A stretch of DNA of 62,984 nucleotides, counting the filler, from Stramenopiles sp. TOSAG23-3 (Eukaryota), in the NCBI GenBank assembly GCA_900128585.1. It is 10 parts of 10 records of this genome, joined end to end, with 100 filler letters (N's around TTAATTAATTAA, not from the genome) between each part and the next. Parts side by side here need not be neighbours in the genome. Positions count along the whole stretch, not along the records: positions 1 to 10,742 come from LT642791.1; 9 more parts are not named here. One strand, 5' to 3'. Each line of letters begins with the position of its first letter. The stretch's first letter is position 1. The notes under the pieces were generated by a model. That model worked only from the letters and a program-made list of their open reading frames with translations, ran no database searches and was not told the origin of the DNA. This document shows, piece by piece, positions 1 to 43,285 of this stretch. The position numbers and the translations under genes were made by a program.

Positions 1-257
1 TCCCATATAACCCATTGAAAAGTTTTTCTCACTCACGCACAGCTCCCAGAAAATCCCAACTCCCAACAATCCCATCTGGTCTGGCCACACCCTAGTACAC
101 ACATAGTACACACCGTTATCCCGCCACCCGTCGGCTCCCATCTACTGACATACCAAATAATTAAAAACCATTACGAAATACATATAGAATAATAAAAACC
201 AACTAAAAACATTCTATAATCAAGAACAAAACAACTACCACACCCAATTCATTCACC

Positions 258-1211
258 ATGTCGCTCAAACGCTCCATCTCCGAAGTATTCTACCCCCAAC
301 AAGTCGCACTCGATTTGCGCAACCAAGACCCTGAGGCCAAACGCGCCCGCATCGTGGACCATAACAACGTTATCGACCTGTCCCGCTCGCAATCAATGGA
401 AGTGCCTACGTCATTGCCGTCACAGAAAGAGAAATCAACTACGGAAGCCCCCGCGACTCCAGAGCGCAAAGAAATCCAACCGCAATGCCCGTCCGCTCCA
501 CGCAAAGTGCACAAAGAAATCGATTGGGACGAGTTTGCTAAGACTCACACACCCGCGGAAGTCTTAAAGGCGTACAGCGAGACACACGTTATCGAAGACC
601 ACGTACTCGAGACTGAAAATGTCGGAAACGACGTTGTAGTCACCGGTGAAAAGGAAGTCATTGTCGTGCCCATGATCCCATTTACTCAAGTGGAAGACGA
701 CGATCCAGTGGATCAAGATGAGCTCGTGATTGAAGAGACTCCAACTCAAGCTGTCGAAACTCAAGCTGTCGAAACTCAAGTTGAAGCCACTCAGCCACTT
801 GAAACTCAATCCACTGCTACTCAAGTTGATGATCCTGAGCCGATTATCACCGATCAACAGGTCGAGACCACGCAACAGCTGGAGACCATTGTCGAAGAAC
901 CTGAAGAGGAGGAAGAAGGCAAGCCCAAATGGACTCCAGAACGGTTCGAAGAAGCCTATAACGGCGGTGAAGACCTATTTTTTCGCTATGAAACGATGGA
1001 CCCCAACATGCCCCAATTCACTCACAGTGGCGTCTGGAATGGTTTGAGCAGCCTTGAACTGGAGAACATGGACATGTTCATGACGAACCTTCGCGAACAG
1101 TTCCTCAGCATTCCAATCTCCAAAGAACATGGGATCACCATGGCGCACTTCGAAGACGAGTCGGTTCGCATTGTTGGCTGGGCGATTTCGGACTCTATGA
1201 TAAATTTCTAA
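258..1211 (+). CDS. Acidic, largely disordered protein with NLS-like AKRAR, TP..CPSAPRK motif and TQ-rich repeats
   Basis: 317-aa ORF with A/C-rich leader; motifs read from translation. Confidence 0.85.
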   Translation: MSLKRSISEVFYPQQVALDLRNQDPEAKRARIVDHNNVIDLSRSQSMEVPTSLPSQKEKSTTEAPATPERKEIQPQCPSAPRKVHKEIDWDEFAKTHTPAEVLKAYSETHVIEDHVLETENVGNDVVVTGEKEVIVVPMIPFTQVEDDDPVDQDELVIEETPTQAVETQAVETQVEATQPLETQSTATQVDDPEPIITDQQVETTQQLETIVEEPEEEEEGKPKWTPERFEEAYNGGEDLFFRYETMDPNMPQFTHSGVWNGLSSLELENMDMFMTNLREQFLSIPISKEHGITMAHFEDESVRIVGWAISDSMINF

Positions 1212-1235
1212 GCTATATTTTTTTTTGATGTCAAT

Positions 1236-1266
1236 GGTCCTCAGATACGACCTTAAACTGTCTGGG
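1236..1266 (+). ncRNA. Predicted H-type pseudoknot (copy 1) heading a structured ~500-nt non-coding tract
   Basis: GGTC-CTCAGATAC-GACC-TTAAAC-TGTCTGGG: S1 GGTC/GACC, S2 CTCAGATA/TGTCTGGG; same layout as 7106-7131(-). Confidence 0.6.
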
Positions 1267-1739
1267 GTAGTTTGCCATACTGCCCTGCTTGTGTAAATCT
1301 ACAAATGGAGACATTCGACTAATGATGGCTGATAAAAGTGCTTTTTGATATTCGCTAAATAGGCACGGCTTAGGTCCTTTGTGACAGTGGGAGAGTTCTC
1401 CAGCTCTATTGCACGATTGTTTGCCCACTTAAAAATAATAGAGAAACGTGTGCGGATCGGCTCCTTTCCTTCTTGAGTTAAGAAGGACAACCGTGATACG
1501 GTACATAGGGATTCGTAAAAATTAACTCACTACTTACCACCGAACAAAAAAGCTGACACAACAGCTGAAACAAATGGAAAAAAAACAACGAGAAAGTAAA
1601 CGATTGCATATACGAAGGATACAGAATAAGAAGAAAAAAAGAAGAAGCAAGCGCAAACAACGCAATGAAAAACGAACAAAGGAGGGCTTACAAGGTAAAC
1701 CATTGAATAACCTTATCGCATTGTTGGCTGGGCGGTTGC

Positions 1740-1852
1740 CTAAGCGTTTAACGTTCTTTCCATTCCGAACAGGTTAACTAAGGTTAACACATGAAGCGTA
1801 ATGCTATCATTATATACATAAACTCATTATCCTATACTTTCCTTAATTAATT
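1740..1852. repeat. 113-bp dispersed element, copy 1
   Basis: Starts with invariant CTAAGCGTTTAACGTTCTTT; colinear with 1908-2019 and 5067-5179. Confidence 0.9.
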
Positions 1853-1907
1853 ATTATACCTCTATTTAGCTTTGATGTACTTTCCTTATCTCTTACTAGC
1901 CTGAATT

Positions 1908-2019
1908 CTAAGCGTTTAACGTTCTTTCCATTTTGATCGGCTAATCTAAGGTAAATACTTCATACGTAATGCTATTATTATATTGATAAAATCATTGGTA
2001 TTAAAATACCTTATTATTT
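1908..2019. repeat. 113-bp dispersed element, copy 2
   Basis: Same 20-nt head and shared blocks CTAAGGT, GTAAT, ATAAA-TCATT, CCTTA. Confidence 0.9.
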
Positions 2020-2049
2020 CGTTACGAATATACTCTCAATGTACTTCAC

Positions 2050-2505
2050 TTACGAACGGTAGACATTGCGCTTGCCATTCTCCCACTCGTTATCGACGTC
2101 CCAACCGCATTCTTTTAATGCTGTGTAATGTTGCTTGAGGACGGACCGTGGAAAATAGTGGTGCATTTTGTTGATAATCTTCTCAGGATTGAAGCGAATT
2201 ACCACTTCTTGATCCAAGTCATCGTCATCGGGAATTTCCGTGAGATCTTCGCCATCTTCATCTTCCAATATCACGTACTTTTTCTTGATTCCGGGCAAGA
2301 GCTTTTTGCGAATAAAATCACCGTTGTTAGTAGAGCATTGATCGAATGCTCCTTCGTAGAAGACTCCATCTTCCTCCTGTGCGCCCGGAAACTCATTGTC
2401 CTCCCAGTTCTTGAACCAGAACATAAATAGATTCCGGTTCGCCCTCTTCCTCAGGACCTTTTTGCTTGGCGCGGCTTGTTTCGTTTGTCTTGTCGTGTGC
2501 GGCAT
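2050..2505 (-). CDS. Hypothetical protein (basic N-terminus, acidic middle)
   Basis: 151-aa ATG ORF with A/C-rich leader. Confidence 0.75.
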   Translation of the reverse strand: MPHTTRQTKQAAPSKKVLRKRANRNLFMFWFKNWEDNEFPGAQEEDGVFYEGAFDQCSTNNGDFIRKKLLPGIKKKYVILEDEDGEDLTEIPDDDDLDQEVVIRFNPEKIINKMHHYFPRSVLKQHYTALKECGWDVDNEWENGKRNVYRS

Positions 2506-2583
2506 CGTGTAGTTGATTTTCGTTTGGTATTGGCTTTCTTTTGTAATTTGTATTGTTTGGTTTACTTTACTTTTATTATGTTA

Positions 2584-3135
2584 TTAATTTGCTTTTATTA
2601 CTTTTAGTACAAGGTCTTCCAGCACGCTTCCAACTTGTCGGTGTGTGCTCTTGCGTTTGCGTTTATAAGCCACTACGTGAGAGGAGTGGCCTCGTTTTCT
2701 TTTTCTTATTGGAAATTGTGGCGGCGTGGGTGGAGTTGGAAATTGTGGCTCAGGTGGACCCATTGGTGCTGCCACTGGTAAATCAGGTATTGTGTTCGTT
2801 AGCCCTGTCAGCCCTATCATAGTTATACTCTCCGAGCGATCGATAGGCTTAAGGACAATGGTTACCTCCCTCTTGGCTAGTATTACCTTTATGGTGACTT
2901 CTTTCTCCAGTTCCATTCTCAAATCCTTCATCGCATTGAGAAATATGGCCGGAAATTGTTCGTTCAGTGCGTAGCCTACGTCCTCCTTGAAGTCCTGTGC
3001 GTCCATTATGTGTCTATATAAATCGCCCGCATTGGTAATTAGCACAAGGTGTAGTTCCTTTCCTTTGAGAAATACAATAAGCCTTCCCTCTGCAACAGGG
3101 TAGAGAACCGGCAAATACGTTTCTAAGTTATTCAT
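2584..3135 (-). CDS. Hypothetical protein with Pro-rich linker and basic C-terminal tail
   Basis: 183-aa ATG ORF, RKRKR clusters. Confidence 0.75.
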   Translation of the reverse strand: MNNLETYLPVLYPVAEGRLIVFLKGKELHLVLITNAGDLYRHIMDAQDFKEDVGYALNEQFPAIFLNAMKDLRMELEKEVTIKVILAKREVTIVLKPIDRSESITMIGLTGLTNTIPDLPVAAPMGPPEPQFPTPPTPPQFPIRKRKRGHSSHVVAYKRKRKSTHRQVGSVLEDLVLKVIKAN

Positions 3136-3153
3136 AGTTGTTATTCTTTACTA

Positions 3154-3777
3154 TTATGCTTTGTTTATCCATTTATTTCCATTCCATTCGCGATTGTATA
3201 TTATTTTATCCTTTTTACTCATGTTCTCGGTACCCCACATGGGCTGGAGGTTGGTGTAATGAAAACATCGTCTCTGCTGTTCGGGACAGCTCAAGTCGAA
3301 GGAGGCACATGGCATCATGTGATCAACGTGCCATTTCCCTTGGTTCTCCCATGTCATTCCGGGCTGGAATTGCTTTTTCATATGATCCATTAAATGGGGA
3401 ATGCTACAGCCCACTAACTTCATGGTTCGAGCGCTCTTACTTTTGCCTTTGAGTGCTTTGAGTAAACGGGAGCTTAAATTACACCGAAGTTTGTACTGTG
3501 GATCGGTCTTTCTACGTTCCCTTTGCCACGCATTTTTTCGTTTCTTGACTTCCGGGCGTTGGCTGCTCTTCCTGTCAGATGCACGTATTTTCTCACGGTT
3601 GTTTTGTTTCCATTTCCTGCTATATGCATTGTGTTTCTCCGGGTTGTCTTTGCGGTACTTCTTTCTAGATGCACAACGACACACTTTGCATCGGTATTGG
3701 AGTCCATCGGGTGCTCTGGATAGCTTGCTAAACTCCGTGAGCTCTTTGCTCTGGTTGCATCCGGTACAGGTCTTCAT
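3154..3777 (-). CDS. HNH/endonuclease VII-like free-standing homing-type endonuclease with N-terminal Zn finger
   Basis: CxxC..CxxC N-terminus; GMTWEN..WHVDH..PCASFDL..CFHYTNLQPMW..EN..K C-terminal nuclease motif. Confidence 0.85.
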   Translation of the reverse strand: MKTCTGCNQSKELTEFSKLSRAPDGLQYRCKVCRCASRKKYRKDNPEKHNAYSRKWKQNNREKIRASDRKSSQRPEVKKRKNAWQRERRKTDPQYKLRCNLSSRLLKALKGKSKSARTMKLVGCSIPHLMDHMKKQFQPGMTWENQGKWHVDHMMPCASFDLSCPEQQRRCFHYTNLQPMWGTENMSKKDKIIYNREWNGNKWINKA

Positions 3778-3932
3778 TTTGATGACAATTGTGGCTATAA
3801 ATACTCTTGTTTAATTTCTGGCTAGCCGTTTTACAATTCCCAATGGCATCGGATAGTTCTAGCCACAATTTTTGATACTTTATTGATTCAATTCCATTAT
3901 TATAATAGTATAGTATTATAATATTAGACCAA

Positions 3933-4022
3933 CATCCCAACAATCCCATCCTCCCAACAATCCCATTTGGTACACAGCATCGTACTATACTATGGTACTA
4001 TATCCCTCCATCTTCCAGTCGG
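3933..4022 (+). promoter_or_regulatory. TCCCAACAATCCCAT upstream module (related copies at 54-135 and 7226-7290)
   Basis: TCCCAACAATCCCAT twice here and once at 61-75; each cluster lies ~170-370 nt upstream of a plus-strand ORF; function inferred. Confidence 0.55.
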
Positions 4023-4131
4023 CCATAAAATTGTTTGTACAGTATTTAATGTTCTAGTTAAATAATAACAATCAAACCATAAAAAGTATATGTAAAGAAT
4101 CTACAAAACAAACTACAAATCACTATTAATC

Positions 4132-5070
4132 ATGCAAGCTACTACTATTCTAGTTGCTACCATCTGGAAGCTCATGGGCTACCGAGACGATACTGACGAG
4201 CGTATGAGTAAGGAAATGCTCTTTCGTATCGCTAAGGATGATGAACTGGAAGCGGCAATGGCACAGGGTTTTCTACTCATTGACTCTGATTTACATCGTA
4301 GATATGTGACCTTTGATGTCGTTAAATCACTGGCAGATAAAGCCATGTTGGACACCGAACTGAACTTGCCCAAGCTCTGTAAAGCCATCTTGGACCTTGA
4401 TTGTTTTGAACACGAAGAGTTTATCAAACAGGCCCTCGATCTTCAGGACTATGGCGACAAGTACTGTTCGCACTGGGATTTCCCGGTGATTGAAGCGAAC
4501 AAAGAGACAAAGATACCAGCCGGACCGGAGGAAATGAAGCAGCTGTTTGATCAGTGCTTTACGATATTGAAGACGATGAACTTCCATGCGAACTTTTTTA
4601 GTATTGACAAGCGCAGATCACTCACCAAGATGGCAACGAAACTTGAGATCTTCAAAGACCACAGGCCTTCCATCGGCAACTCCATTCGAGTTCGTATCGA
4701 TGTGGCTAAGCTCCAGACCATTGGGCAAGCGTGTGAAAGACACGACAGTGTGGCAACCATGGCGTTACATTGTAACGAAATACTCAGTGATTACGGCTCT
4801 GATACGGATACGGACGAAGAGGAAGAGTGGGCAACCGGTCCTACAGGTCCGTTGTGGCATTCTGAAGGTCGGCATAGAGCTGGAAACCGCTGTTCCGCAT
4901 GCGACACCTACTGTGGCGTTGCTGAGACGTGTGAGCGATGCATGCAAGGCCCTGAAACACTGGCTGTAAGTGATTCTGGGTCCGATACAGATACCGACGA
5001 GGACGAACTCATGCCAAATCAAGAACACAACGAACTCTACCATCGGCCATTGAAACGAATGAGGGTCTAA
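4132..5070 (+). CDS. Hypothetical protein with duplicated SDTDTDE motif flanking a CxxC..CxxC cluster and C-terminal NLS-like RPLKRMRV
   Basis: 312-aa ORF; its TAA stop lies in the head of the 113-bp element. Confidence 0.85.
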   Translation: MQATTILVATIWKLMGYRDDTDERMSKEMLFRIAKDDELEAAMAQGFLLIDSDLHRRYVTFDVVKSLADKAMLDTELNLPKLCKAILDLDCFEHEEFIKQALDLQDYGDKYCSHWDFPVIEANKETKIPAGPEEMKQLFDQCFTILKTMNFHANFFSIDKRRSLTKMATKLEIFKDHRPSIGNSIRVRIDVAKLQTIGQACERHDSVATMALHCNEILSDYGSDTDTDEEEEWATGPTGPLWHSEGRHRAGNRCSACDTYCGVAETCERCMQGPETLAVSDSGSDTDTDEDELMPNQEHNELYHRPLKRMRV

Positions 5071-5179
5071 GCGTTTAACGTTCTTTTCTGATCGAACAGT
5101 TTATCTAAGGTTAATACTTCAAGTGTAATACTATTATTATGTACATAAAATCATTAATCTTAATATTCCTTAATAATTT
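5067..5179. repeat. 113-bp dispersed element, copy 3
   Basis: Aligns to copies 1 and 2; lies between convergent ORFs. Confidence 0.9.
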
Positions 5180-5204
5180 ACTATTATTATGGTCTTAATG
5201 TTAT

Positions 5205-5621
5205 TTACAACTTCAGATCTCTTGGATTCGTCGTTGCTTGCCCACTGACCGCGTTTCTATCTACCTTTTTGCTGGACAATTGAAATAGTATCCTATTATC
5301 AGGAGGCTTTTCCCCAAATTCACCGAATTTCTTAAAAATTTCTCCCATAGTATCTGTCAGTTTTACTGGCACGCCATTTCCATTTACATCCACCAAGTAG
5401 TCGTAGGTTTTTCCACTCATCTCTTTCCTCCATTGTTCGTTACTTTCTATTATGTAATCAATACATCTTTGTAATGTGACGGTAGTATAAAACTTCGTTG
5501 GCAATACGTATTTATCTGTTAATTTTACTGGTATTTCCATCACAGGGTCCATGCGTACATTCCTGAATTCATTTGGAAATACTATTTGAAAACGTAGGAT
5601 AAATACTTTCACCATATACAT
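5205..5621 (-). CDS. Hypothetical protein (PVKLTD twice; ends DLKL)
   Basis: 138-aa ORF preceded by TATATATAAAA. Confidence 0.7.
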   Translation of the reverse strand: MYMVKVFILRFQIVFPNEFRNVRMDPVMEIPVKLTDKYVLPTKFYTTVTLQRCIDYIIESNEQWRKEMSGKTYDYLVDVNGNGVPVKLTDTMGEIFKKFGEFGEKPPDNRILFQLSSKKVDRNAVSGQATTNPRDLKL

Positions 5622-5651
5622 AATATAAACTTTTATATATACTAAATCTAT

Positions 5652-6068
5652 TTACTTAATCGCTCTACGGCACATCGCGCATTTCGGACTTACTTGAGTC
5701 TTCAAATGGTCTAGGCACGCTTTACAGTACTTGTGACCGCACCCTGTAATTGCCAGTTGTCCAGTTGGTATCTCTTCTAGGCAAATAGGGCATTCGAGCT
5801 GCTTTTTGAGTTCATTGACCATCTCCTCGATTTCTGTAGCGAGGTGCTGTGGAACGTTCTCAACCCCTTCCCCATTTTGTGGACTTGAGTGATTTTGCGC
5901 AACCAAAAGGTTAAGACTTCGGGCAGTCTGTAGCATGTTCATAAGCGTGTGATGGTGGTCATTGCACTCGCCAAAATACTTCCCCCATGCGTACTTACGA
6001 GCACGTTCTTTGCGGTCAATTATTCGTTGCGCGATAACAGGGATGGGAACTCGGTTGGTTCGTGGCAT
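5652..6068 (-). CDS. C3HC4 RING finger protein (putative E3 ubiquitin ligase)
   Basis: CPIC..CGHKYCKAC..CAMCR. Confidence 0.9.
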   Translation of the reverse strand: MPRTNRVPIPVIAQRIIDRKERARKYAWGKYFGECNDHHHTLMNMLQTARSLNLLVAQNHSSPQNGEGVENVPQHLATEIEEMVNELKKQLECPICLEEIPTGQLAITGCGHKYCKACLDHLKTQVSPKCAMCRRAIK

Positions 6069-6107
6069 AGTTGTTTTTAGATTGCTTTTAGAATGTTTTT
6101 AGTTTTA

Positions 6108-6284
6108 CTAAGTTATTACTGTGCCTTTTTGTTTTCCACACCATCCGCATAATCTAAAACATATTATAGTTTTTGCACAATCGTTACATAAAATGTAAAA
6201 CCATCCTGACATTTTAGCGGGCTCCAGAGGAGTAAAGTTTTCACGAGGAGTTCTGTCCATTTTTATTTGATACACTTCCGTCAT
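6108..6284 (-). CDS. Small Cys-rich protein (58 aa, not in ORF track)
   Basis: Manual translation MTEVYQ..LCNDC..LCGWCGKQKGTVIT*; CxxC..CxxC. Confidence 0.5.
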   Translation of the reverse strand: MTEVYQIKMDRTPRENFTPLEPAKMSGWFYILCNDCAKTIICFRLCGWCGKQKGTVIT

Positions 6285-6345
6285 TTATAGCCATAAAAAA
6301 ATGACCTCCACTACACATTTTTAACACATTTGTGTACAAGGGCGA

Positions 6346-6417
6346 TTACATCGACTGGAGTCGAACCAGCTACCTCCGCGTTATGAATGCGGTGCTCTGC
6401 CGTTGAGCTACGATGTA
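6346..6417 (-). tRNA. tRNA-Met (CAT), elongator-type, no encoded CCA
   Basis: TACATCG/CGATGTA acceptor stem, GCTC/GAGC D stem, loop TTCATAA, GGTTCGACTCC T arm. Confidence 0.9.
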
Positions 6418-6691
6418 TGAAGAGAAAGCGAACACTGTAAGAGGGTGGGATAGGAGTGGGGTTTTTGGGCATTTACCATTACCAGCGGAGAGACATTTGA
6501 AAGAACTATTTTGCATAGTAGTCCTACAGAGTCACGACCTCTATTACTCTTTAAGCTTCACGCTAACGTCATTGGTATTGGTATTCCAACAAACCTTATT
6601 ACTCGCATAACCTATATGATTATACATTTTTATGTACTTCCTATCTCCGGTATTAGATGAGAGATAAAGTAACACTGTTCTAGGCTCTTTT

Positions 6692-6741
6692 TGGTGGTAC
6701 GTACTGGAATCAAACCAGTATTTCAGTTATCAAACCATACC
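6692..6741 (-). ncRNA. 50-nt anticodon-less tRNA-like minihelix ending in ACCA
   Basis: GGTATGG-15nt-ACTGG TTTGATT CCAGT-ACGTACC-A-CCA: 6-bp acceptor-like stem plus perfect 5-bp T arm. Confidence 0.55.
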
Positions 6742-6927
6742 TTGCAGCGTTTTAAAACCTCTCCTTACTACATCCCACGCTTTCTCCTTACCGATAGTCG
6801 ATCTAATTATTTCAAGCTCTTACTGAATTGCCACTCCTTTTCCGCCGACATGGGTGCCACCCACCTATTTGTGTACGGTACTACAGATATCCTTTATAAT
6901 TTTGGCTGAAATTACTTGGGATAACCG

Positions 6928-7025
6928 GGGAATGAAGAGGAATCCAACCTCAATTGGCGGTGCATTGTAACCTACTGAAGAGGAATCCAACCTCAAATGC
7001 GGTGCCTAAGACAACAGACCATTCC
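6928..7025 (-). ncRNA. Second tRNA-like element with duplicated T arm
   Basis: GGAATGG/TCATTCC 7-bp stem enclosing two GAGG TTGGATT CCTC hairpins (21-nt exact repeat at 6933-6953 and 6976-6996). Confidence 0.45.
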
Positions 7026-7105
7026 TTCTGATCACGTTTTTACATGGTATCAGCATGTATTTCTTATTATTGTTAAGGGTTTTTTTTTTTGCTGTGAGTG
7101 ATCGA

Positions 7106-7131
7106 GGCAGTTTAAAGTCGTACCAAGGACC
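7106..7131 (-). ncRNA. Predicted H-type pseudoknot (copy 2)
   Basis: GGTC-CTTGGTAC-GACT-TTAAAC-TGCC: S1 GGTC/GACT, S2 GGTA/TGCC. Confidence 0.55.
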
Positions 7132-7225
7132 TTGGACCTCGCCGCGCTCCATTCATTTACTCATAACTTTGACATATATAGTCCATTTTTATTTTTGATG
7201 TCCATTTAGAAATTGTATTAAAACT

Positions 7226-7287
7226 GTACATCCCATTTGGTACATCCCATTTGGTACATCCCATTTGGTACATCCCATTTGGTACAT
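7226..7287. repeat. Tandem 14-mer GTACATCCCATTTG x4
   Basis: Four perfect units read directly; ATCCCATTTGGTAC also at 3960-3973. Confidence 0.95.
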
Positions 7288-7493
7288 ACATGGATACAGC
7301 ATTAAGATGGGATTAATTGGGATTTTTATGGATAGAAATTATATTAGTCGAAAATAACATACGAATAGCAGCCGCATGGGTCATTTTTTAATCATTATTT
7401 GAATTACCATAGGGACAGCATGAAAATAACAAATCTTATTTTTTTTAATTTAAATTTAAATGCCCGTCGGGGGTCCTAACACATCCCGGTACC

Positions 7494-7573
7494 ACTAAAC
7501 CAAAACTAAACCAAAACTAAACCAAAACTAAACCAAAACTAAAAGTAAACTAAACCAAAACTAAAAGTAAACC
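7494..7573. repeat. Tandem 11-mer ACTAAACCAAA array in the leader of ORF 7594
   Basis: About four perfect units plus degenerate copies. Confidence 0.9.
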
Positions 7574-7593
7574 GAAAACACCGATATATTATT

Positions 7594-8190
7594 ATGGTGC
7601 GCACAAAAAAATGCAAACGACTAAGCAGCGAAGGGGGGCGAATGTTACCACCAAGACCGAAGACGATCAAAGACCTGCAAGAGGAGGCAGACGATATGAA
7701 GTACAACCTCAAACTCGTAACAGATCAGATCAATGCGATGCAAAAAGCGGAAAGAGTACCACAAGACGGTGATATTTGGTGTCGCAAAGACAACTCAAAG
7801 GAGCGTTACTTCGTCATTCCCACACCCGGTGGGGTCGAAATGAAAAAGGGAGGCGCATTAAACTCGTTTACGGTTTCAAGGAAACAATTCGAAAAGCACT
7901 ACACGCTCGCTGTGCGTGGCAAAAACCTTATGACAGAGGGGAAGATCACCATCAAAGAGTGTACCTTTGCCGAATGGTACGGGGGCAACGTAAACACCTT
8001 GTGGATTCAGGAAGCGGAGAAGGTTCGGATTTACATGGTAGAAGGGGAAGACGATCTCTCTCTGGAAGACGATACGCATTGGGAAGAATACAAAGCAAAC
8101 TACTTGTATTTCGGGAACCCGAAATATGGCGAGATCGCACCCGGGGAACTACGAAATATCAGTAAAGACTGGGACATTCAGGTATCTTAA
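7594..8190 (+). CDS. Hypothetical protein
   Basis: 198-aa ATG ORF with basic N-terminus and short coiled coil. Confidence 0.8.
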   Translation: MVRTKKCKRLSSEGGRMLPPRPKTIKDLQEEADDMKYNLKLVTDQINAMQKAERVPQDGDIWCRKDNSKERYFVIPTPGGVEMKKGGALNSFTVSRKQFEKHYTLAVRGKNLMTEGKITIKECTFAEWYGGNVNTLWIQEAEKVRIYMVEGEDDLSLEDDTHWEEYKANYLYFGNPKYGEIAPGELRNISKDWDIQVS

Positions 8191-8639
8191 AATTTTAAGT
8201 GATACGGATTTACATATAAATCGTTCCTGTAACCGGTAGACTGTTCCATTTCATCTAAAATAAATCTATCGTACAACCATTCTGCCTGCTCTATCCAATC
8301 GTCGTCATCAAGACGATCACTCAGAAACAGTTGTTGCAATTTCTTGAAGTCTTTTTGGTTTACTTTAGACTTCATCTTTTTAAGTTTGTATTGGATGTAA
8401 TCCTCTTCTTTTCTATAGGTTTTCCCATATTTAAAATTTTGGTGTTGATCCCAAATATATTTGAGTAAATACAAGTACATTTTGATATCGTCCTCATTAT
8501 CTTCGTACGGTACAAGATTTACAACAACGCGGACGCGGCACTGCCTATTGCACACCTTTGGATTGTTCGCTCTATATATTGCGTCGGAGATGACAAAATA
8601 TAATCTTTCTCGTGCGTTCTTCGCGTATTGTGCTTCCAT
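8187..8639 (-). CDS. Hypothetical protein (ends HLKF)
   Basis: 150-aa ORF; stop overlaps convergent gene; TATATATA upstream. Confidence 0.75.
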   Translation of the reverse strand: MEAQYAKNARERLYFVISDAIYRANNPKVCNRQCRVRVVVNLVPYEDNEDDIKMYLYLLKYIWDQHQNFKYGKTYRKEEDYIQYKLKKMKSKVNQKDFKKLQQLFLSDRLDDDDWIEQAEWLYDRFILDEMEQSTGYRNDLYVNPYHLKF

Positions 8640-8667
8640 TATTACTACATATTAAAATTATATATAC

Positions 8668-8841
8668 TTATTTTATCCTGAACCGACAGATCGGGCAACT
8701 CATGTCTTCTTTCAACCATGTCGTGATACAGTAGATATGAAAATAGTGGCCACATTTTAATTTGAAGCCGCATTTGATATCTTCCATGCATATACAGCAC
8801 CAAAATTTTATTTTTCCATGTTCCCTAAGCAGAGTGTACAT
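8668..8841 (-). CDS. Minimal RING-H2 protein (57 aa, not in ORF track)
   Basis: MYTLLREHGKIKFWCCICMEDIKCGFKLKCGHYFHIYCITTWLKEDMSCPICRFRIK*. Confidence 0.85.
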   Translation of the reverse strand: MYTLLREHGKIKFWCCICMEDIKCGFKLKCGHYFHIYCITTWLKEDMSCPICRFRIK

Positions 8842-8842
8842 C

Positions 8843-9307
8843 TCAAAGTAAATCGTTTGCTATATATATACAGATGGAAAATATGAGCCCGATTACGTTG
8901 AAGGCGTTGTCGAATCCGTTGTTGAGCCACTGTGGTGGTGAAAACAGTAAAATTGTGGTCAATATTAAGTGAATGGAATTCAATGTAAACACGGAGAATT
9001 TCTCTTGGATATAGTACACCAGAGCTCCCAAGAAGTAAAATTCAATTGGGAGTGTCAATTCGTAGGAGTTGGTCCATTGGTCCCATGAGCCGGTAAAGCA
9101 TGCACCCCAACCAAATACCTCATTTTCCTGACCACAATTTTTCTGGTAGATACGACCTTCACCATAAATGATGTGCCAAAGATGGCTCATGGGCGCGACC
9201 AAAAGAGCAGTGGCGTAAAGTAGAGTGTACCCGAGCCCATTACCTTCTTTCCGGGCTAAAATGAAAAGAATAAATATTAGTAAGAAAACTATAGTTGCGA
9301 TAATCAT
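8843..9307 (-). CDS. Multi-pass membrane protein
   Basis: 154 aa with about five hydrophobic segments. Confidence 0.75.
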   Translation of the reverse strand: MIIATIVFLLIFILFILARKEGNGLGYTLLYATALLVAPMSHLWHIIYGEGRIYQKNCGQENEVFGWGACFTGSWDQWTNSYELTLPIEFYFLGALVYYIQEKFSVFTLNSIHLILTTILLFSPPQWLNNGFDNAFNVIGLIFSICIYIANDLL

Positions 9308-9344
9308 TTTACAGGCTCTACAGACGTTTATATACTTTAAAAAG

Positions 9345-9626
9345 ATGATCGGTGATATTTTAATTCAAAAAAGCAAAAATACCTACTTGAAGCCCCGTCT
9401 ATGGACGGTGGTGTCTAAAAATGAAGTGGACCATGGTGGGAAACGAGTTCGCTTTCGGACCGTGGAAGGAAAAGTCTACATACAGACTGAAGTCGGCTAC
9501 AACAACTATCTTGAAGTCCCATTTAATGAAGACAAAGGCTATGAGGTTAATCTCATTTTAAACCCGAACGACCCCATCGAGGCCAGAATACTCTCGTCCA
9601 TAATTGTGGATACGCATTGTGTTTAA
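9345..9626 (+). CDS. Hypothetical protein (start at MIGDIL)
   Basis: First ATG clear of the divergent gene; shared TTTATATA box at ~9327-9334. Confidence 0.6.
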   Translation: MIGDILIQKSKNTYLKPRLWTVVSKNEVDHGGKRVRFRTVEGKVYIQTEVGYNNYLEVPFNEDKGYEVNLILNPNDPIEARILSSIIVDTHCV

Positions 9627-10187
9627 TTAATAATAATTCGTATACGGGTAGCCCCATTTTTTATCACACTCTTTTAAATCTTCCTCTAACGCCGGTAACC
9701 CCACTAAGTGGTGAGAATGTTTTGCCATAGTGTGCGCATAGAAATACAGCTTCACGTATTCTTGTGCGTGTAAATCTGTAGTAAGAAGTTCCAATCCATC
9801 TTCATCCGTCAGGTAAAGCCATTGATTGTTGATACCTACCTGAATGGTGTACATTCCATACAGTTCCTCTACAGCTGCCCATTTGCCTTCCGAGAAGACA
9901 TTTTCTGTAAAATTGTGTTCAGCAAAGTGGTCAAACCAGAAGAAATACATGTGATTTTTACAATGAATTTGCAAATAATCGATCCTGTTTCCCCCGAAGA
10001 GTTTTTTGACGGGAAAAGTATTATTACTCTTGTAGATTTTGGCCGAGGAACTGTCCGCTTCAAAACATATGCCAAACACAGGTACACCCATCATGGAATT
10101 TCGTGTTACTGTATTTTCACTCGAGGGGAGTATAGGGCCCGTACATGTGAAAGTTACAGATTGTGGACGGAAGGAGACTTGAACCAT
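9627..10187 (-). CDS. Hypothetical protein (first ATG at MVQVSF)
   Basis: Long ORF abutting the convergent gene. Confidence 0.7.
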   Translation of the reverse strand: MVQVSFRPQSVTFTCTGPILPSSENTVTRNSMMGVPVFGICFEADSSSAKIYKSNNTFPVKKLFGGNRIDYLQIHCKNHMYFFWFDHFAEHNFTENVFSEGKWAAVEELYGMYTIQVGINNQWLYLTDEDGLELLTTDLHAQEYVKLYFYAHTMAKHSHHLVGLPALEEDLKECDKKWGYPYTNYY

Positions 10188-10742
10188 GTCTTTACCAGTG
10201 TTATTCAATATTGTCCACAAATAATTCAAAAATTATGTAATACTGACCAAGCCATATTATGCTTAACAGAAGGTTGACCTATCAAACTAAAACAAAATAA
10301 ATTTTATGCAGGTAAATACATCTGACTTGTAGTGCAATTTTGTATACTCTATTTTACCTGATGTGTCCCCCTAGCTATAGGGTAGAGCACCTACTACGAC
10401 CCCCCCCTAGTCATTTTATAATTATTAATTTTACTTTTTTTTTTATTTATATATGAAATACAAGCATGGAAGGTATAGGGGGTTTTAAAGGGGGCATAGC
10501 AAGGGATGACGTTGCAAAACGCTATTTTGGAAAAACACGAGTGTGATTCTGGGAGAGGGGGGGTATCGTTTTTCCCACTCTGCCCTGTAGTCCTCATATA
10601 CACAGCAGCTAAAACGTTTGTATTCGGTTTTTTGATTAAGTACGTATTTGGAGTTTGATAGGTAATGGTGTGTGGTGTAACGTCTCCATGCTGTGTGGTG
10701 CAATGCTGTGTAGGTCACGTTTTAGTCTATAGTACGCTCCCG

Positions 10743-17954: not shown

Positions 17955-20900
17955 TTACATTTGTTCTGCCAGCAAAACGTTCATTTCATCAAGACTCTTC
18001 TTTGCGTCGCCAAGCCACATATCAGTATTGTCTTTGTAGAACACTGGGTTATCAACACCAGCATATCCAGATGCCATACTTCGCTTCATGAAGAGCACCT
18101 GTTCGGCATTCCATACTTGAATAACGGGCATACCACCAATGGCACAATTGGGATCATCCTCGGCCAAGCAATTAACGGTATCGTTGGCACCAACGACAAG
18201 GGCGACTTGGGTATCCGCCATTTCTTCGTTAACCTCTTCCATTTCATACACAATATCGTATGGAACACCGGCTTCGGCAAGAAGAACATTCAATTGCCCG
18301 GGCATACGGCCAGCAACTGGGTGAACACCAAAGGTGACATCTTTCCCCATCTTCTTCAATTTGGTGGCAATCTCTGCTACCGCATTCTGGGCTTGCGCGA
18401 CCGCCAACCCGTACCCTGGAGTGATCATAACTTTCTGAGCATCAAGCATGGCTTGGGTCGCCTGGGCACTGTCGACTTCGGTGTGGACGAGGCCTTCCGC
18501 GGTTTGGACCGCTCCAGCTTCGGTACCGAATCCACCCATGATGACACCGGTCAAATCACGGTTCATACCATCACACATGATCTTGGTCAAGAAAGCACCG
18601 GAGGAACCAATCAAAGCACCAACAATGGTCAAGACTGGTTGGTCAAGAATGAAACCTTCTGCGCAAAGAGCCCAGCCAGAGTATGAGTTCAACAAAGTGA
18701 CGACAACGGGCATATCTGCACCACCAATACTGGCGGTCATGTGAAAGCCCAAGGCACCACTACTCAATACACCGTACCCAAGGGCGGTGCCAGCAACCGT
18801 AGGAGACGACGAGCCCATGAACGCGAGCATCGAAAGAGCAGTGGTACTGCCCAAGCCCATGTTGATGTAATCTCTGCCCGCCAACTGAAGCGGTTTCGTG
18901 TCCATAACCTCTGCAAGTTTCCCGCATGCAATGACTGAACCGGTGAATGTGATACTCCCCATCCAGGCGCCCAAATAAATGGCAGCACTGTGGAAGCCAT
19001 CCATGTGGCTCATGTCATGCACGAGGAAGTCTCCCACGGCAGTGCTAGCCGCAGCAATACCTACTAGGCAATGGAACCCAGCAACGGCTTGCGGCAAAGA
19101 CGTTGGCTCAATGCGAGCAGCGAGTTGATGCCCGACTGCCCCCCCAAGAAGCGAAAAGAGGCCAAGTTGGGCCCACACAGCCTTCGATTCAGGGGCCATG
19201 GTGCCCATGGCCGCCAAAATACCGAGACCAACACCCCCCATACCAACGGAGACGCCGGCACGTGCGGTTTTTTGGTCGCTGAGGCATGCGATTCCCCCAA
19301 TGCAGCCTAGACCAGAAATCAGCGCAACAGTGGGAGTCAAACTCGCTGATGCGGCGCCGGTTGCACTGGCTAGTACGTAGCCTCCACCAATGACGCCAAA
19401 CGGAGCCATGTAGTAGTGCCAGTACTCAGGTGGATCGTCTGGGCGACGAAACAAGTCGAGCATTTTCTGAGTGACCATAAAACCACCGGTCAAGTTCACT
19501 GCGGACAGAGTGACTGCGGTAGTAGCCAAGACCTGGGCACTGTTGTGTGGCATAACACCACCGCCAAGCTGCAGCATACCCCCAATCATTGTCATCCCAC
19601 TGATGGCATTGGTGACACTCATCAAGGGAGAGTGCAAAGCGTGCGTTACGCCTTGGACCGCACCACTCCCAACCCAAACGGACAAGGCCAGGGTCGAAAG
19701 CATCGGTGCGTTTGGCACTCCAGCGCCCATAAGGGTAGCGGCACTACCAAGCACAGTCATATTTTTGGCGCTTGACATCATTTCCTTTTGTGGGTCGACT
19801 TCTTCCACAACAACTTCCACAGCGGCGGCAGTCTCGGTGACTTCGGGTGGTGGTGGAACGTATTCGTCCAGCTTCTTGCCCTTGTGGACAACGCACATGC
19901 TGCGGACCGCCTCGTCATTCTCCAAATCAACGACGTACTCGCCTTCTCTCTCCATGCTCAGCAGGAACTTTGTGACGTTGTTACCGAACAAAGTACTCGA
20001 CGTGGTTGACATGCGACTGGGCATGTTCGTGTATCCAACTGCAGTGACACCGTTGACGTCGACGATTTTGTCCTTCTCTGTAATATCGCAGTTTCCACCG
20101 TTCTCGGCAGCGAGATCGATGATAACACTCCCTGGGGCCATTGCGTCGGTGTGGTGCTTCTTGATCAGCACCGGTGCTGGCCGCCCTGGGATCAGCGCGG
20201 TCGTAATGATAACGTTGGTCCTTTCCATTTCTTTCAAAAGCATTTTGTCTGCGGCGTCGAACCACTCTTTCGACATTTCCTTCGCATACCCTCCGGCGCC
20301 AGAGCCGTCTTCTTCGAACTCAACCTTTAAAAATTGAGCGCCCATACTTTCGACTTGCTCTGCCGCAGCGGCACGCACGTCGAAGGCTGTCACAATTGCA
20401 CCCAAGTTCTTTGCGGATTGGATCGCGGCTAGACCGGCAACACCAGCGCCTACAACCATCACGCGGGTGGGTGGAATTTTTCCGGCGGCAGTCATTTGAC
20501 CGGCGAAGGGGCGCTGCATGAAATGCCCGGCCTCGATGACAGCACGATACCCTGCCATGTTGGCCTGAGAACTGATAACGTCAAAAGTTTGCCCACGGCT
20601 CAGCGTGCGCAGAAGCATGGTCAGGTCGAAGCAAGTGGCGCCCTGTTGGGCGAGCTGATCTCGCAGCTCAGGATTGATGCGAGTGCCCAAACTGTTGATC
20701 AACGTGCGGTTCTCCAACTTTTTCAACATGTCCGGGGTTGGCTCTCTCAACTTAAGCACCATGTCTTGTTTCCAGACCTCGTCGCCAGATACAATGGAGG
20801 CGCCTGCGTTTTCGTACAGCGCATCGGAAAATCCACTCTTGCTTCCTGCTCCTTTCTCCACCGAAACGACAGCGCCTTTCTTAATCAGCTGCTCTACGTT

Positions 20901-21056
20901 CGTCGGAGTTATTACAACGCGAGCTTCCCCCTGGTCGACTTCCTTGCAAACACCCACCCGCAAGTTGTTCAAATTCCTTGATTGTTGCAAGTGTTGACCC
21001 TGCCGTCTGAGAAGTGCCTTCGGGAGCGCGTTGGTCTTGGAAAAACTGCGCAACAT
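17955..21056 (-). CDS. NNT: Mitochondrial NAD(P) transhydrogenase, alpha-beta fused
   Basis: Presequence, GAGVAG, SVTNAISG, LLNSYSGWA, HPVAGRMPG, GANDTVN, KRSMASGYAG. Confidence 0.97.
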   Translation of the reverse strand: MLRSFSKTNALPKALLRRQGQHLQQSRNLNNLRVGVCKEVDQGEARVVITPTNVEQLIKKGAVVSVEKGAGSKSGFSDALYENAGASIVSGDEVWKQDMVLKLREPTPDMLKKLENRTLINSLGTRINPELRDQLAQQGATCFDLTMLLRTLSRGQTFDVISSQANMAGYRAVIEAGHFMQRPFAGQMTAAGKIPPTRVMVVGAGVAGLAAIQSAKNLGAIVTAFDVRAAAAEQVESMGAQFLKVEFEEDGSGAGGYAKEMSKEWFDAADKMLLKEMERTNVIITTALIPGRPAPVLIKKHHTDAMAPGSVIIDLAAENGGNCDITEKDKIVDVNGVTAVGYTNMPSRMSTTSSTLFGNNVTKFLLSMEREGEYVVDLENDEAVRSMCVVHKGKKLDEYVPPPPEVTETAAAVEVVVEEVDPQKEMMSSAKNMTVLGSAATLMGAGVPNAPMLSTLALSVWVGSGAVQGVTHALHSPLMSVTNAISGMTMIGGMLQLGGGVMPHNSAQVLATTAVTLSAVNLTGGFMVTQKMLDLFRRPDDPPEYWHYYMAPFGVIGGGYVLASATGAASASLTPTVALISGLGCIGGIACLSDQKTARAGVSVGMGGVGLGILAAMGTMAPESKAVWAQLGLFSLLGGAVGHQLAARIEPTSLPQAVAGFHCLVGIAAASTAVGDFLVHDMSHMDGFHSAAIYLGAWMGSITFTGSVIACGKLAEVMDTKPLQLAGRDYINMGLGSTTALSMLAFMGSSSPTVAGTALGYGVLSSGALGFHMTASIGGADMPVVVTLLNSYSGWALCAEGFILDQPVLTIVGALIGSSGAFLTKIMCDGMNRDLTGVIMGGFGTEAGAVQTAEGLVHTEVDSAQATQAMLDAQKVMITPGYGLAVAQAQNAVAEIATKLKKMGKDVTFGVHPVAGRMPGQLNVLLAEAGVPYDIVYEMEEVNEEMADTQVALVVGANDTVNCLAEDDPNCAIGGMPVIQVWNAEQVLFMKRSMASGYAGVDNPVFYKDNTDMWLGDAKKSLDEMNVLLAEQM

Positions 21057-35770: not shown

Positions 35771-36736
35771 GTTGGTGGTGGAGGAACCGTTGTCAGCACA
35801 AGAATATGCACCGTAGTAGACCGCGAGAAACAAGTCGTACAACACAGACAGGTGGACTTCCTTTCTTTTCGTACTTGTTCTACGTACAATGCACGCATTC
35901 GAAAGTTCTTACCATTCTTTTTGATTCCATTTTTATCTTTTGCATACAACACACACTCCGTTGTTTCCATAATAAAATACTTTTTTTGTTTTGTTTTCTT
36001 CTTCTCTTTTTTTTTTTTTTTTTTAAATAATAAAAATAATAATATTTTTTTATTATATTATTGTTTTTTTCTTCGTCGTCTTCTTCTTCTTCTCTTCTGC
36101 TTCTTCTTCTTACTACTTCTCCGCCCGCGGCCCGCGGCGTGGATGGAACAAATAATAATATAATAAATAATTATTATTATTTTCATCAATAATGGAATAA
36201 TAAAAGTACAATAAAAGTATACAATTATAAAATAATAATAGAACTAAAATAATAAAGAAACAGTAAAAGTATTACATAGGTCGTTTAAACCATATTATTT
36301 ATATACATACAGTATATCTAATATATTACCGACAGGAAACGTACTATTATAATACAAACTATATTTGAATACAACCCTAACAAATGAATGTATACAAGTA
36401 CATATAACTCGTATTCATTAACGCTAGTTTTCCCACCATTCAATTTATATAGGGATACTATTAATGCTAATTAATTACGGTACTAGTATACATATATATG
36501 TACTTATATTTCATAGCATGTATTTATTGAATTAGCGAAATACCTACAACGAACATACCAAGGTAGAAAGGGAAAGTGATTTAATTAATTGAAGAAGATA
36601 CGAATACATACATACGCTAATGCTGTATGGGCTTGTATTTTGTATTGATTTCTTCTTCAGAATTCTTCATAGTATTATTATAGAGAAGATTTGTTGTGGT
36701 TGATGAATCAATCAAGAAGAAAGAAAGAAAGAAAAA

Positions 36737-43025: not shown

Positions 43026-43285
43026 CTTTACCACCCACCACAGAGAATTGGCCAAAGAAACGTTTTGTTAAGAAGATAAATTCAATCTGGCGTTGCCCGA
43101 AAGTGCAACTGTTGTAACTTTTTGCGGGGGGTAAGGGTTATAAACGCACGGTCAACTTTGTGCCCTCCCCCCCCCCCACACACACNNNNNNNNNNNNNNN
43201 NNNNNNNNNNNNNNNNNNNNNNNNNNNNNTTAATTAATTAANNNNNNNNNNNNNNNNNNNNNNNNNNNNNNNNNNNNNNNNNNNN

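Follow-up and report, generated by a model that had tools for sequence, protein, structure and literature searches.

A conserved, transcribed array of structured RNAs, candidate anticodon-less tRNA-like elements and tRNA-Met in a Stramenopiles sp. TOSAG23-3 assembly

We analyzed a 62,984-nucleotide (nt) stretch of the Stramenopiles sp. TOSAG23-3 assembly GCA_900128585.1 (ten parts of ten records joined end to end; hereafter the window) and found in its first part a locus in which tRNA-like elements and conserved RNAs precede a tRNA-Met gene. On the minus strand, from 7181 to 6295, a TATA-like box is followed by a first tRNA-like element (E1), a 186-nt spacer, a second element (E2), a 274-nt spacer, tRNA-Met and a run of seven T residues (T7). 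An earlier note on this DNA had read the tract as a viral polycistronic non-coding RNA (ncRNA) punctuated by anticodon-less tRNA mimics; seven of the eight features it listed were located where it had placed them, including spacers given as about 185 and 270 nt, and the exception was a pseudoknot. Besides the elements themselves, we observed conservation and covariation of stems, a structured domain in the second spacer, the presence of the locus in RNA libraries and modular gain and loss of its parts. RNase P and tRNase Z read the acceptor stem plus T arm (the top half) of a tRNA. We propose, with moderate confidence, that the locus is a TATA-driven unit of ncRNAs and a tRNA, punctuated by tRNA-derived top-half elements that would serve as marks for these two enzymes; its single precursor, the enzymes, the cut sites and the roles of the released RNAs are what we infer from the observations below.

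Both elements have the minimal shape of an RNase P or tRNase Z substrate, for which we took about 12 stacked pairs (7 in the acceptor and 5 in the T stem) and a 7-nt T loop with U54 and A58. E2 pairs at 6/7 acceptor and 5/5 T-stem positions; as the earlier note said, it is a 50-nt minihelix without an anticodon arm that ends, in the window, in ACCA. E1 pairs at 7/7 and 4/5 positions. Its 7-bp acceptor-like stem (GGAAUGG/UCAUUCC) includes one G.U, and its T arm is present twice, both as claimed; the two T arms form a 43-nt tandem duplication in which a 19-mer occurs twice, each T stem having a U.U and each loop reading UUGGAUU. The two mimics do start alike (AAGGAAUGGUCUG and AAGGUAUGGUUUG), and their T loops (UUGGAUU in E1, UUUGAUU in E2) keep the U54 and A58 pointed out before, together with U55 and R57, in elements that have no anticodon arm. 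Paired changes separate them: acceptor pair 3:70 is A-U in E1 and U-A in E2, and two T-stem pairs differ on both sides. With their shared 5’ starts and T-loop type, E1 and E2 look like paralogues. Few positions distinguish the E2 T arm from the tRNA-Met T arm, and E1 shares a 10-nt identity with the anticodon-stem region of the tRNA.

Relatives of the locus were collected by scanning metagenomes with the 3’ 21-mer of tRNA-Met, which gave eight contigs, and a prokaryote genome collection with a word from spacer 2, which gave one more (L019, filed in a bacterial bin), nine related contigs in all. The tRNA 21-mer had no match in the prokaryote collection. Patterns from E2, tRNA-Met (two patterns) and the spacer 2 domain gave nothing in IMG/VR, and those from the E1 T arm and the 5’ part of E2 returned only unrelated, mostly coding DNA (L003/L004, L013-L018), so that this database yielded no relative of the RNA locus. 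Three contigs (L006, L011 and L019) are close strains, about 95% identical to the window. L009 is syntenic with window positions 146-10208 at 73-86% identity. L007, L008, L010 and L012 form clade B, whose flanking genes no longer align with the window except for a mobile HNH-like open reading frame (ORF), and L005 forms a fourth relative group alone.

The stems of E2 persist in clade B, a distant clade, which was the conservation in homologues that the earlier note had asked about. There E2 has homologous flanks, GCAAGG on its 5’ side and GUUACUUU on its 3’ side, and keeps all five T-stem pairs, three of them through double changes and none broken; in the acceptor, pair 6:67 changes from G-C to A-U and 1:72 from G-C to G.U. 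Neither the 5’ flank GCAAGG nor the T loop UUUGAUU changes between the clades. An extra arm lies between acceptor and T arm in the clade B copy, without a 7-nt anticodon loop. These comparisons suggest that E2 is under selection for its fold, and they support the view that the mimics are real tRNA-like top halves selected for pairing. The ACCA end did not hold up as a feature of E2: the sequence after the element varies from strain to strain, reading ACGG in L009, GCCG in clade B and ACCC in an RNA-contig variant.

Six loci (the window, L006, L019, L007, L008 and L012) have an intact E2 together with an intact spacer 2 domain, and in three others both are lost or broken, spacer 2 being replaced in L009, deleted in L010 and absent from L005. 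Neither was seen without the other (9/9 loci), and the two appear to behave as one module. The RNAalifold model of E2 plus spacer 2 contains 54 pairs; between clades A and B, 12 of these are compensatory and none is broken, compared with 0-1 in slid controls, the model having been predicted from the same four-row alignment as was used for the counting. On a third-lineage contig from an RNA library, which had no part in the model, 20 substitutions touch 8 pairs, of which 6 are kept (4 by double changes) and 2 broken. The pre-tRNA leader that closes spacer 2 is 98% identical to that of L009 (56/57), and its last bases (UUCGCUUUC...) are common to all lineages. Spacer 1 is 83% identical to L009 over aligned bases, with some blocks fully conserved. 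The spacers are conserved structured RNAs in their own right and probably the main products of the locus; the earlier note, which called them spacers, missed these conserved RNAs beside the mimics. Within the spacer 2 domain, a hairpin at 6529-6547 (minus strand) combines a stem of 6 bp with a 7-nt loop, GUCGUGA, that is invariant and has U at place 2 and a purine at place 6, as in an anticodon loop; it could supply the missing bottom half. Spacer 1 carries the motifs AAAGGAG, UAAGGAG and UAAGGAG within 6760-6835 (minus strand), the latter two kept in L009, and clade B has UAGGAGA ahead of its E2.

E1 and spacer 1 are confined to the window group and L009. In L009, E1 is 50 nt long with a single T arm; all five T-stem pairs form there, but acceptor pair 6:67 is a G.G. 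L019 keeps both T-arm copies with matching changes (window 6933-6999; L019 3880-3963): each copy shows the same two differences between window and L019 (GCACC versus GTACC, and loop TTGGATT versus TTAGATT), and because of this the two copies appear to evolve in concert. Clade B has a third T-arm-like element ahead of its tRNA, and its leader gave no convincing alignment with E1 and spacer 1.

The locus stretch was found in 20 public runs from 12 studies, and 6 of these runs are RNA libraries. We examined RNA contigs from four RNA runs of two studies, representing at most three samples. They cover 6446-7008 at depths from 5 to 575 (Table 1), an uneven and locally very high coverage that bears out transcription of the tract; the depths of 575 and 205 both come from one sample, and that of 8.7 from another study. 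We take the signal to be RNA rather than DNA carry-over because depth is uneven over a hundredfold range, stands at 0 in 7020-7300 and is about 3 over the neighbouring gene. The contigs give no cover of 7020-7300 (including the leader), of the tRNA itself or of 6097-6380, which is not evidence of silence there. In one sample, two contigs stop at 6741 (G1, where the E2 acceptor starts), and one from the other study ends at 6744, while the DNA contig L006 runs through 6741-6744 unbroken. These ends hint at a cut at the predicted RNase P site on the 5’ side of E2. Three further RNA-contig ends fall at 6446-6450. Contig ends at 6824, 6881, 6976, 6988 and 7008 coincide with strain indels or duplication edges and were rejected as RNA ends.

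Table 1. Features of the locus and RNA-contig depth along it, in window positions
Feature	Position	Strand	Remarks
Tandem repeat	7226-7287	-	14 nt x 4.4; 45-110 nt upstream of TATA-like box
TATA-like box	7174-7181	-	CTATATAT; 5’ edge of non-coding tract
Conserved leader	7026-7145	-	hairpin region 7104-7140 holding GACUUUAAAC, then A11 run 7090-7080
E1, tRNA-like element	7025-6928	-	two T arms (copies 6976-6994 and 6933-6951), no anticodon arm
Spacer 1 RNA	6742-6927	-	conserved blocks, three UAAGGAG-like motifs, highest RNA-contig depth
E2, acceptor-stem and T-arm minihelix	6692-6741	-	50 nt; T loop UUUGAUU, then ACCA in the window
Spacer 2, whole	6418-6691	-	includes 57-nt pre-tRNA leader 6418-6474
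Structured domain in spacer 2	6474-6583	-	about 110 nt; long closing stem and three hairpins (RNAalifold consensus)
tRNA-Met (CAU)	6346-6417	-	elongator-like, no encoded CCA; ARAGORN; Rfam RF00005, 60.7 bits
T7 run	6295-6301	-	then CTATAAAT and start of 58-aa ORF 6284-6108
RNA-contig depth	6446-6741		5-16
RNA-contig depth	6744-7008		8.7
RNA-contig depth	6824-6976		575
RNA-contig depth	6881-6988		205
RNA-contig depth	7020-7300		0
RNA-contig depth, neighbouring RING gene			about 3

The tract is non-coding, because indels of 1, 4, 5 and 12 nt distinguish strains in the spacers, and L007 differs from L008 by 4 nt in a hairpin loop; the earlier description of it as ORF-poor agrees with this. At its 5’ edge the TATA-like box that had been reported is present at 7181-7173 (minus strand), with C at 7181 and TATATATG at 7180-7173, in full CTATATATG. 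The same CTATATAT box lies upstream of the array in L009, L008, L010, L007, L012 and L005, and every lineage seen has a single box at the 5’ edge, whatever the content of the array or the length of the tract behind it (about 125 nt in L005, about 190 nt in L010 and 760-800 nt elsewhere). CTATAWAT occurs 18 times in the whole window against 3.5 expected, mostly in intergenic DNA and in virus-like and cellular parts alike; this genome probably uses it as its general TATA box. A different tandem repeat occupies the equivalent place in L008 and L005 and none is found in L009, so that three lineages have a lineage-specific repeat upstream of the box. The leader is identical to that of L009 at 115/118 aligned bases (97%), against 74-86% for the coding flanks, and in clade B GACUUUAAAC sits in the loop of another hairpin. 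The pseudoknot that had been seen at 7131-7106 was not recovered: the tools predict a nested hairpin only, which folds no better than shuffles (z = -1.1; 24/200 fold as well). That stretch is identical in those relatives that have it.

In the pathway that we favour, a TATA-type promoter at the 5’ edge would drive the leader, E1 with spacer 1, E2 with spacer 2 and the terminal tRNA-Met. E1 and E2 would derive from tRNA genes that lost their anticodon and D arms and kept the coaxial top half of acceptor stem and T arm. RNase P would then cut each top half, and also the tRNA, on its 5’ side; these cuts would part the upstream from the downstream RNA and set the 5’ end of an RNA of about 300 nt made of E2 and spacer 2. 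For the earlier idea of one precursor cut at the mimics, the elements, their conservation and the presence of RNA stand in its favour, and the contig ends at 6741/6744 fit a cut on the 5’ side of E2; the 3’ cuts and the release of free spacer RNAs or free mimics found no support, as RNA contigs cross the 3’ sides of E1 (6928) and E2 (6692) unbroken.

The absence of a 3’-side cut in these contigs is one of several points that weigh against our proposal. The contigs show neither RNA ends nor strand, and the strain indels at 6746-6750 and 6756 could themselves have ended assemblies around 6741-6744. The pairing is imperfect (the U.U in the E1 T stems of the window, the G.G in the E1 acceptor of L009), which speaks against E1 having a fixed role, the covariation evidence spans two or three lineages only, and the spacer 2 model shares its alignment with the pair counts. 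E2 is dispensable, being broken in L009, where the 5’ T-stem strand is deleted, and deleted in L010. Finally, the minihelix shape alone is at chance level and the fold z-scores are weak (-2.2 for E1, -1.2 for E2): a strict acceptor-plus-T-arm descriptor finds two sites in the window (E2 and the real tRNA) against 1.17 expected in shuffles, and a relaxed one 16 against 15.4. Clustering of the T-arm motif is beyond chance. GGTTNRAYTCC occurs five times in the window against 0.66 expected, with 0/100 shuffles reaching five, and 4/5 copies fall within a 640-nt stretch of one strand; of these four, one pair stems from a single duplication and another copy belongs to the true tRNA. Because the shape is at chance and the clustered copies include a duplication and the true tRNA, our case rests on the relatives and the RNA data.

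The same motif resembles a B box, and each tRNA-like element might instead be the internal promoter of its own RNA polymerase III (Pol III)-type unit rather than a cutting mark, as in gammaherpesvirus TMERs, tRNA-derived short interspersed elements (SINEs) and BC1 RNA. E1 would then drive E1 and spacer 1 as far as a T4 run at 6756-6753, and E2 would drive E2, spacer 2 and tRNA-Met as far as the T7 run. The B-box-like GGTTNRAYTCC is kept in E1, E2, the third clade B element and the tRNA, but the A-box region of E1 and E2 is poorly matched (by eye). The T4 run is 12 nt ahead of E2, and no run of at least five T follows the TATA box until the T7 past the tRNA; the lack of T5 runs over 880 nt is not significant, however (about 1.5 expected, an estimate), and clade B has two T4 runs about 40-50 nt past E2, upstream of the conserved domain, and its tRNA is not closely followed by any T run. 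The RNA contigs fall into two groups, 7008-6744 and 6741-6446, with no bridging contig, keep E2 joined to spacer 2 and leave the leader (7020-7145) uncovered, all as this explanation would have it. It leaves a conserved TATA box and a 97%-conserved leader without a role, and the T7 block accompanies the next gene in L005. There the block (GGAGGTCATTTTTTT..CTATAAAT) stays beside the ORF start, about 220 nt further from the tRNA, and because of this the run more likely belongs with the promoter region of the next gene than with the tRNA as its terminator. The T7 run of the earlier note is thus present at 6301-6295, but not as a conserved terminator. Overall we consider separate Pol III units unlikely.

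We are equally doubtful that E1 and E2 are decaying tRNA pseudogenes with no function of their own, the adjacent conserved RNAs being the sole functional parts. tRNA fragments are made and moved at this locus. tRNA-Met is intact in 8/10 loci and has lost its anticodon arm in the other two: in L019 (about 3280-3350, minus strand) 13 nt replace the arm, and in L009 (2872-2920, minus strand) the loss takes in the anticodon arm and part of the D arm, so that a 49-nt acceptor-plus-T-arm element remains. Directly after E2, L009 also carries an inserted 3’ piece of tRNA-Met and a small ORF for a membrane-type peptide; the insert (2490-2760) is homologous to DNA downstream of the tRNA in L005 (1566-1794; 77% over 241 nt) and looks like the outcome of recombination or integration at the tRNA 3’ end. 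The loss of the E2 T-stem strand in L009 and of E2 itself in L010, the recent 43-nt duplication in E1, the unconserved ACCA and the chance-level shape are further points for decay. It does not account for the paired double changes that preserve the E2 stems across clades too diverged for their flanking genes to align, for E2 and spacer 2 being kept or lost together in all nine loci compared, or for the invariance of the GCAAGG flank and the T loop across clades. The anticodon-less tRNA-Met alleles themselves support a tRNA origin of the mimics and fit simple decay equally. The two truncated alleles share the junction AGAGCGCGC, though their contigs belong to different lineages.

The earlier suggestion of decoys for tRNA-sensing or tRNA-cleaving host defences, widened here to sponges for tRNA-binding host factors, with anticodon nucleases, the CCA-adding enzyme and exportins as possible targets, is very improbable: many tRNA-binding proteins do read the top half and one sample contains part of the locus in great abundance (depth 575), but anticodon nucleases need the anticodon loop that is missing here, the abundant contigs represent half of E1 plus spacer 1 rather than a free mimic, and ACCA is not conserved.

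Known RNA families do not explain the array. The earlier note’s true tRNA-Met was confirmed by ARAGORN and Rfam and is the only known-family RNA that these found in the whole window. E1 and E2 gave no tRNA match in Rfam even at E up to 10 (RF00005 cut-off 29 bits) and no ARAGORN call, nor did the clade B E2 with its extra arm give a tRNA call. The mascRNA-menRNA model had no match at its gathering score or at E up to 10, and neither ARAGORN nor Rfam found a transfer-messenger RNA, in which the two ends of the molecule make up a tRNA-like domain around a tag reading frame and pseudoknots; the E2 acceptor strands are only 50 nt apart. The full match to a known family that the earlier note had allowed for was therefore not found with Rfam or ARAGORN. 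Several other candidates were rejected. Weak Rfam matches far below cut-off (manA-II, 27 bits against 100; snoR11, 21 against 80) were taken as chance, as were those of BSR0626, snR95 and Plastid-ycf2 on the antisense of the tRNA. A telomerase-template reading of CCCAAAAACCCCA at 6470-6458 is not conserved in clade B; a hammerhead suggested by CUGAUGAG in the third clade B element has no Rfam match in L007 or L012; signal recognition particle RNA, small nuclear RNA and small nucleolar RNA are without Rfam support; and a permuted or split tRNA does not fit the normal strand order.

We also considered the setting of the locus. Over approximately its first 10.7 kb, the window has a G+C content of 40%, and its ORFs there are short and without a known family. 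Elsewhere the window carries intact, intron-free cellular genes for a cullin (33407-35845), a fused NAD(P) transhydrogenase (17955-21056) and a leucine-rich-repeat protein (38772-43055), separated by A+T-rich low-complexity spacers, so that it is a mosaic of 1-10700 and 11000-62984. The RING protein encoded in the window has two distant relatives on IMG/VR contigs, neither with any tRNA, and one of these contigs also encodes a ribonucleotide reductase small chain. A Pfam scan of the ten ORFs in 2050-10229 and of ORFs 258-1211 and 4132-5070 found a RING finger only and no giant-virus hallmark gene, and none was found by Pfam among 10 ORFs of L008 and L009. Our criterion for Nucleocytoviricota was hallmark genes (capsid, polymerase, packaging ATPase) on the same contig, and no such genes were found. 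ORF 7594-8190, a neighbour of the locus, had no relative in IMG/VR, and a protein atlas gave nothing usable for a 1985-aa ORF and, for ORF 3154-3777, ‘viral hypothetical’ neighbours at feature level only. A viral origin of the ORFan-rich block of about 40% G+C is plausible, and an endogenous element or an assembly join would both fit. The label ‘viral’ of the earlier note thus finds some indirect backing in the ORFan content and the giant-virus-like relatives, those of the HNH-like ORF family described below among them, and stays unproven because the window also carries intact cellular genes and no hallmark gene was found.

Three neighbouring features deserve mention. ORF 3154-3777 (minus strand) belongs to a large marine HNH-like family (2048/2088 candidates at E <= 0.001, on contigs of up to 375 kb), one bacterial member of which carries the name HNH endonuclease; its homologue lies at a different place in clade B (L008 14423-14746, about 50% identity), and it is probably a mobile endonuclease gene. 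A 100-nt non-coding piece at 7351-7449 shares 86% identity with L009 12740-12839, which in that contig lies about 10 kb away from the RNA locus; the window piece gives the weak manA-II-like match (27 bits against the cut-off of 100), and a low-depth RNA contig lies at 7347-7412. An 11-nt tandem repeat (ACTAAACCAAA x 6.5) at 7494-7580 and an imperfect inverted counterpart at 6071-6102 flank the non-coding tract, about 1.4 kb apart.

tRNA-like processing marks are already known from vertebrate long non-coding RNAs (lncRNAs), a plant lncRNA, plant mitochondria and one herpesvirus group. In plant mitochondria, t-elements and tRNA punctuation mark RNA ends for RNase P and RNase Z by tRNA or tRNA-like folds; that system is organellar and flanks mRNAs and rRNAs, whereas the RNAs flanked here are structured ncRNAs without a known family. 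TMERs are processed by host tRNA enzymes and linked to precursor microRNA hairpins. They are full cloverleaves with Pol III A and B boxes and hairpins of about 60 nt, whereas our locus has top halves only, a poor A box, structured RNAs of 186-274 nt downstream and a TATA box at its head. What the two share is a non-decoding tRNA-like element 5’ of a longer ncRNA, the TMERs of murine gammaherpesvirus 68 (MHV68) being viral (PMC4337559). mascRNA and menRNA, from the 3’ ends of MALAT1 and NEAT1_2, resemble our elements in having a tRNA-like fold within a long non-coding transcript, there made from an upstream promoter (PMC6152437). Unlike mascRNA, E2 of the window has no anticodon-like stem, there are two or three elements per locus and none matches Rfam; mascRNA lies at the very 3’ end, whereas the elements here precede structured RNAs and a real tRNA in virus-like marine DNA. 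GUT15 of Arabidopsis is tRNA-like with a non-canonical anticodon region, cannot be transcribed alone and is excised from an RNA polymerase II transcript by the tRNA maturation machinery (PMC6152437). It is single, cloverleaf-like and located in an intron of a plant nuclear gene, whereas ours is an array in virus-like DNA. Chlorovirus tRNA clusters are co-transcribed, possibly yielding one precursor. Large DNA viruses such as chloroviruses and tupanviruses have clustered tRNA genes, and these are complete decoding tRNAs, with no anticodon-less elements or interspersed structured RNAs described in the part of the source available (PMC11946776). A literature search, mainly of titles and summaries as listed, found no such elements described for large DNA viruses of protists. 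By analogy, the locus would work like mascRNA, GUT15 or TMER processing, yet it belongs to none of those families.

What the locus adds is a conserved, abundantly expressed family of structured RNAs without a known family, two natural alleles in which tRNA genes turn into anticodon-less mimics, and a testable prediction of exact cut sites. If our proposal is true, the maturation of ncRNAs encoded by such viruses or virus-derived elements relies on tRNA-processing enzymes of the host, and a top-half mimic beside a tRNA becomes a search handle for similar cassettes. More tentatively, it is possible that marine giant-virus-like elements carry mobile ncRNA cassettes in which tRNA genes have repeatedly been stripped to top halves as cutting marks for host enzymes, perhaps also providing a tRNA-like 5’ handle on a structured RNA of about 300 nt. 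Such a handle could bring the RNA to export factors, the CCA-adding enzyme, elongation factor or the ribosome, and the locus would then amount to a polycistronic ncRNA operon that a virus encodes and that is processed in the manner of a mitochondrial transcript.

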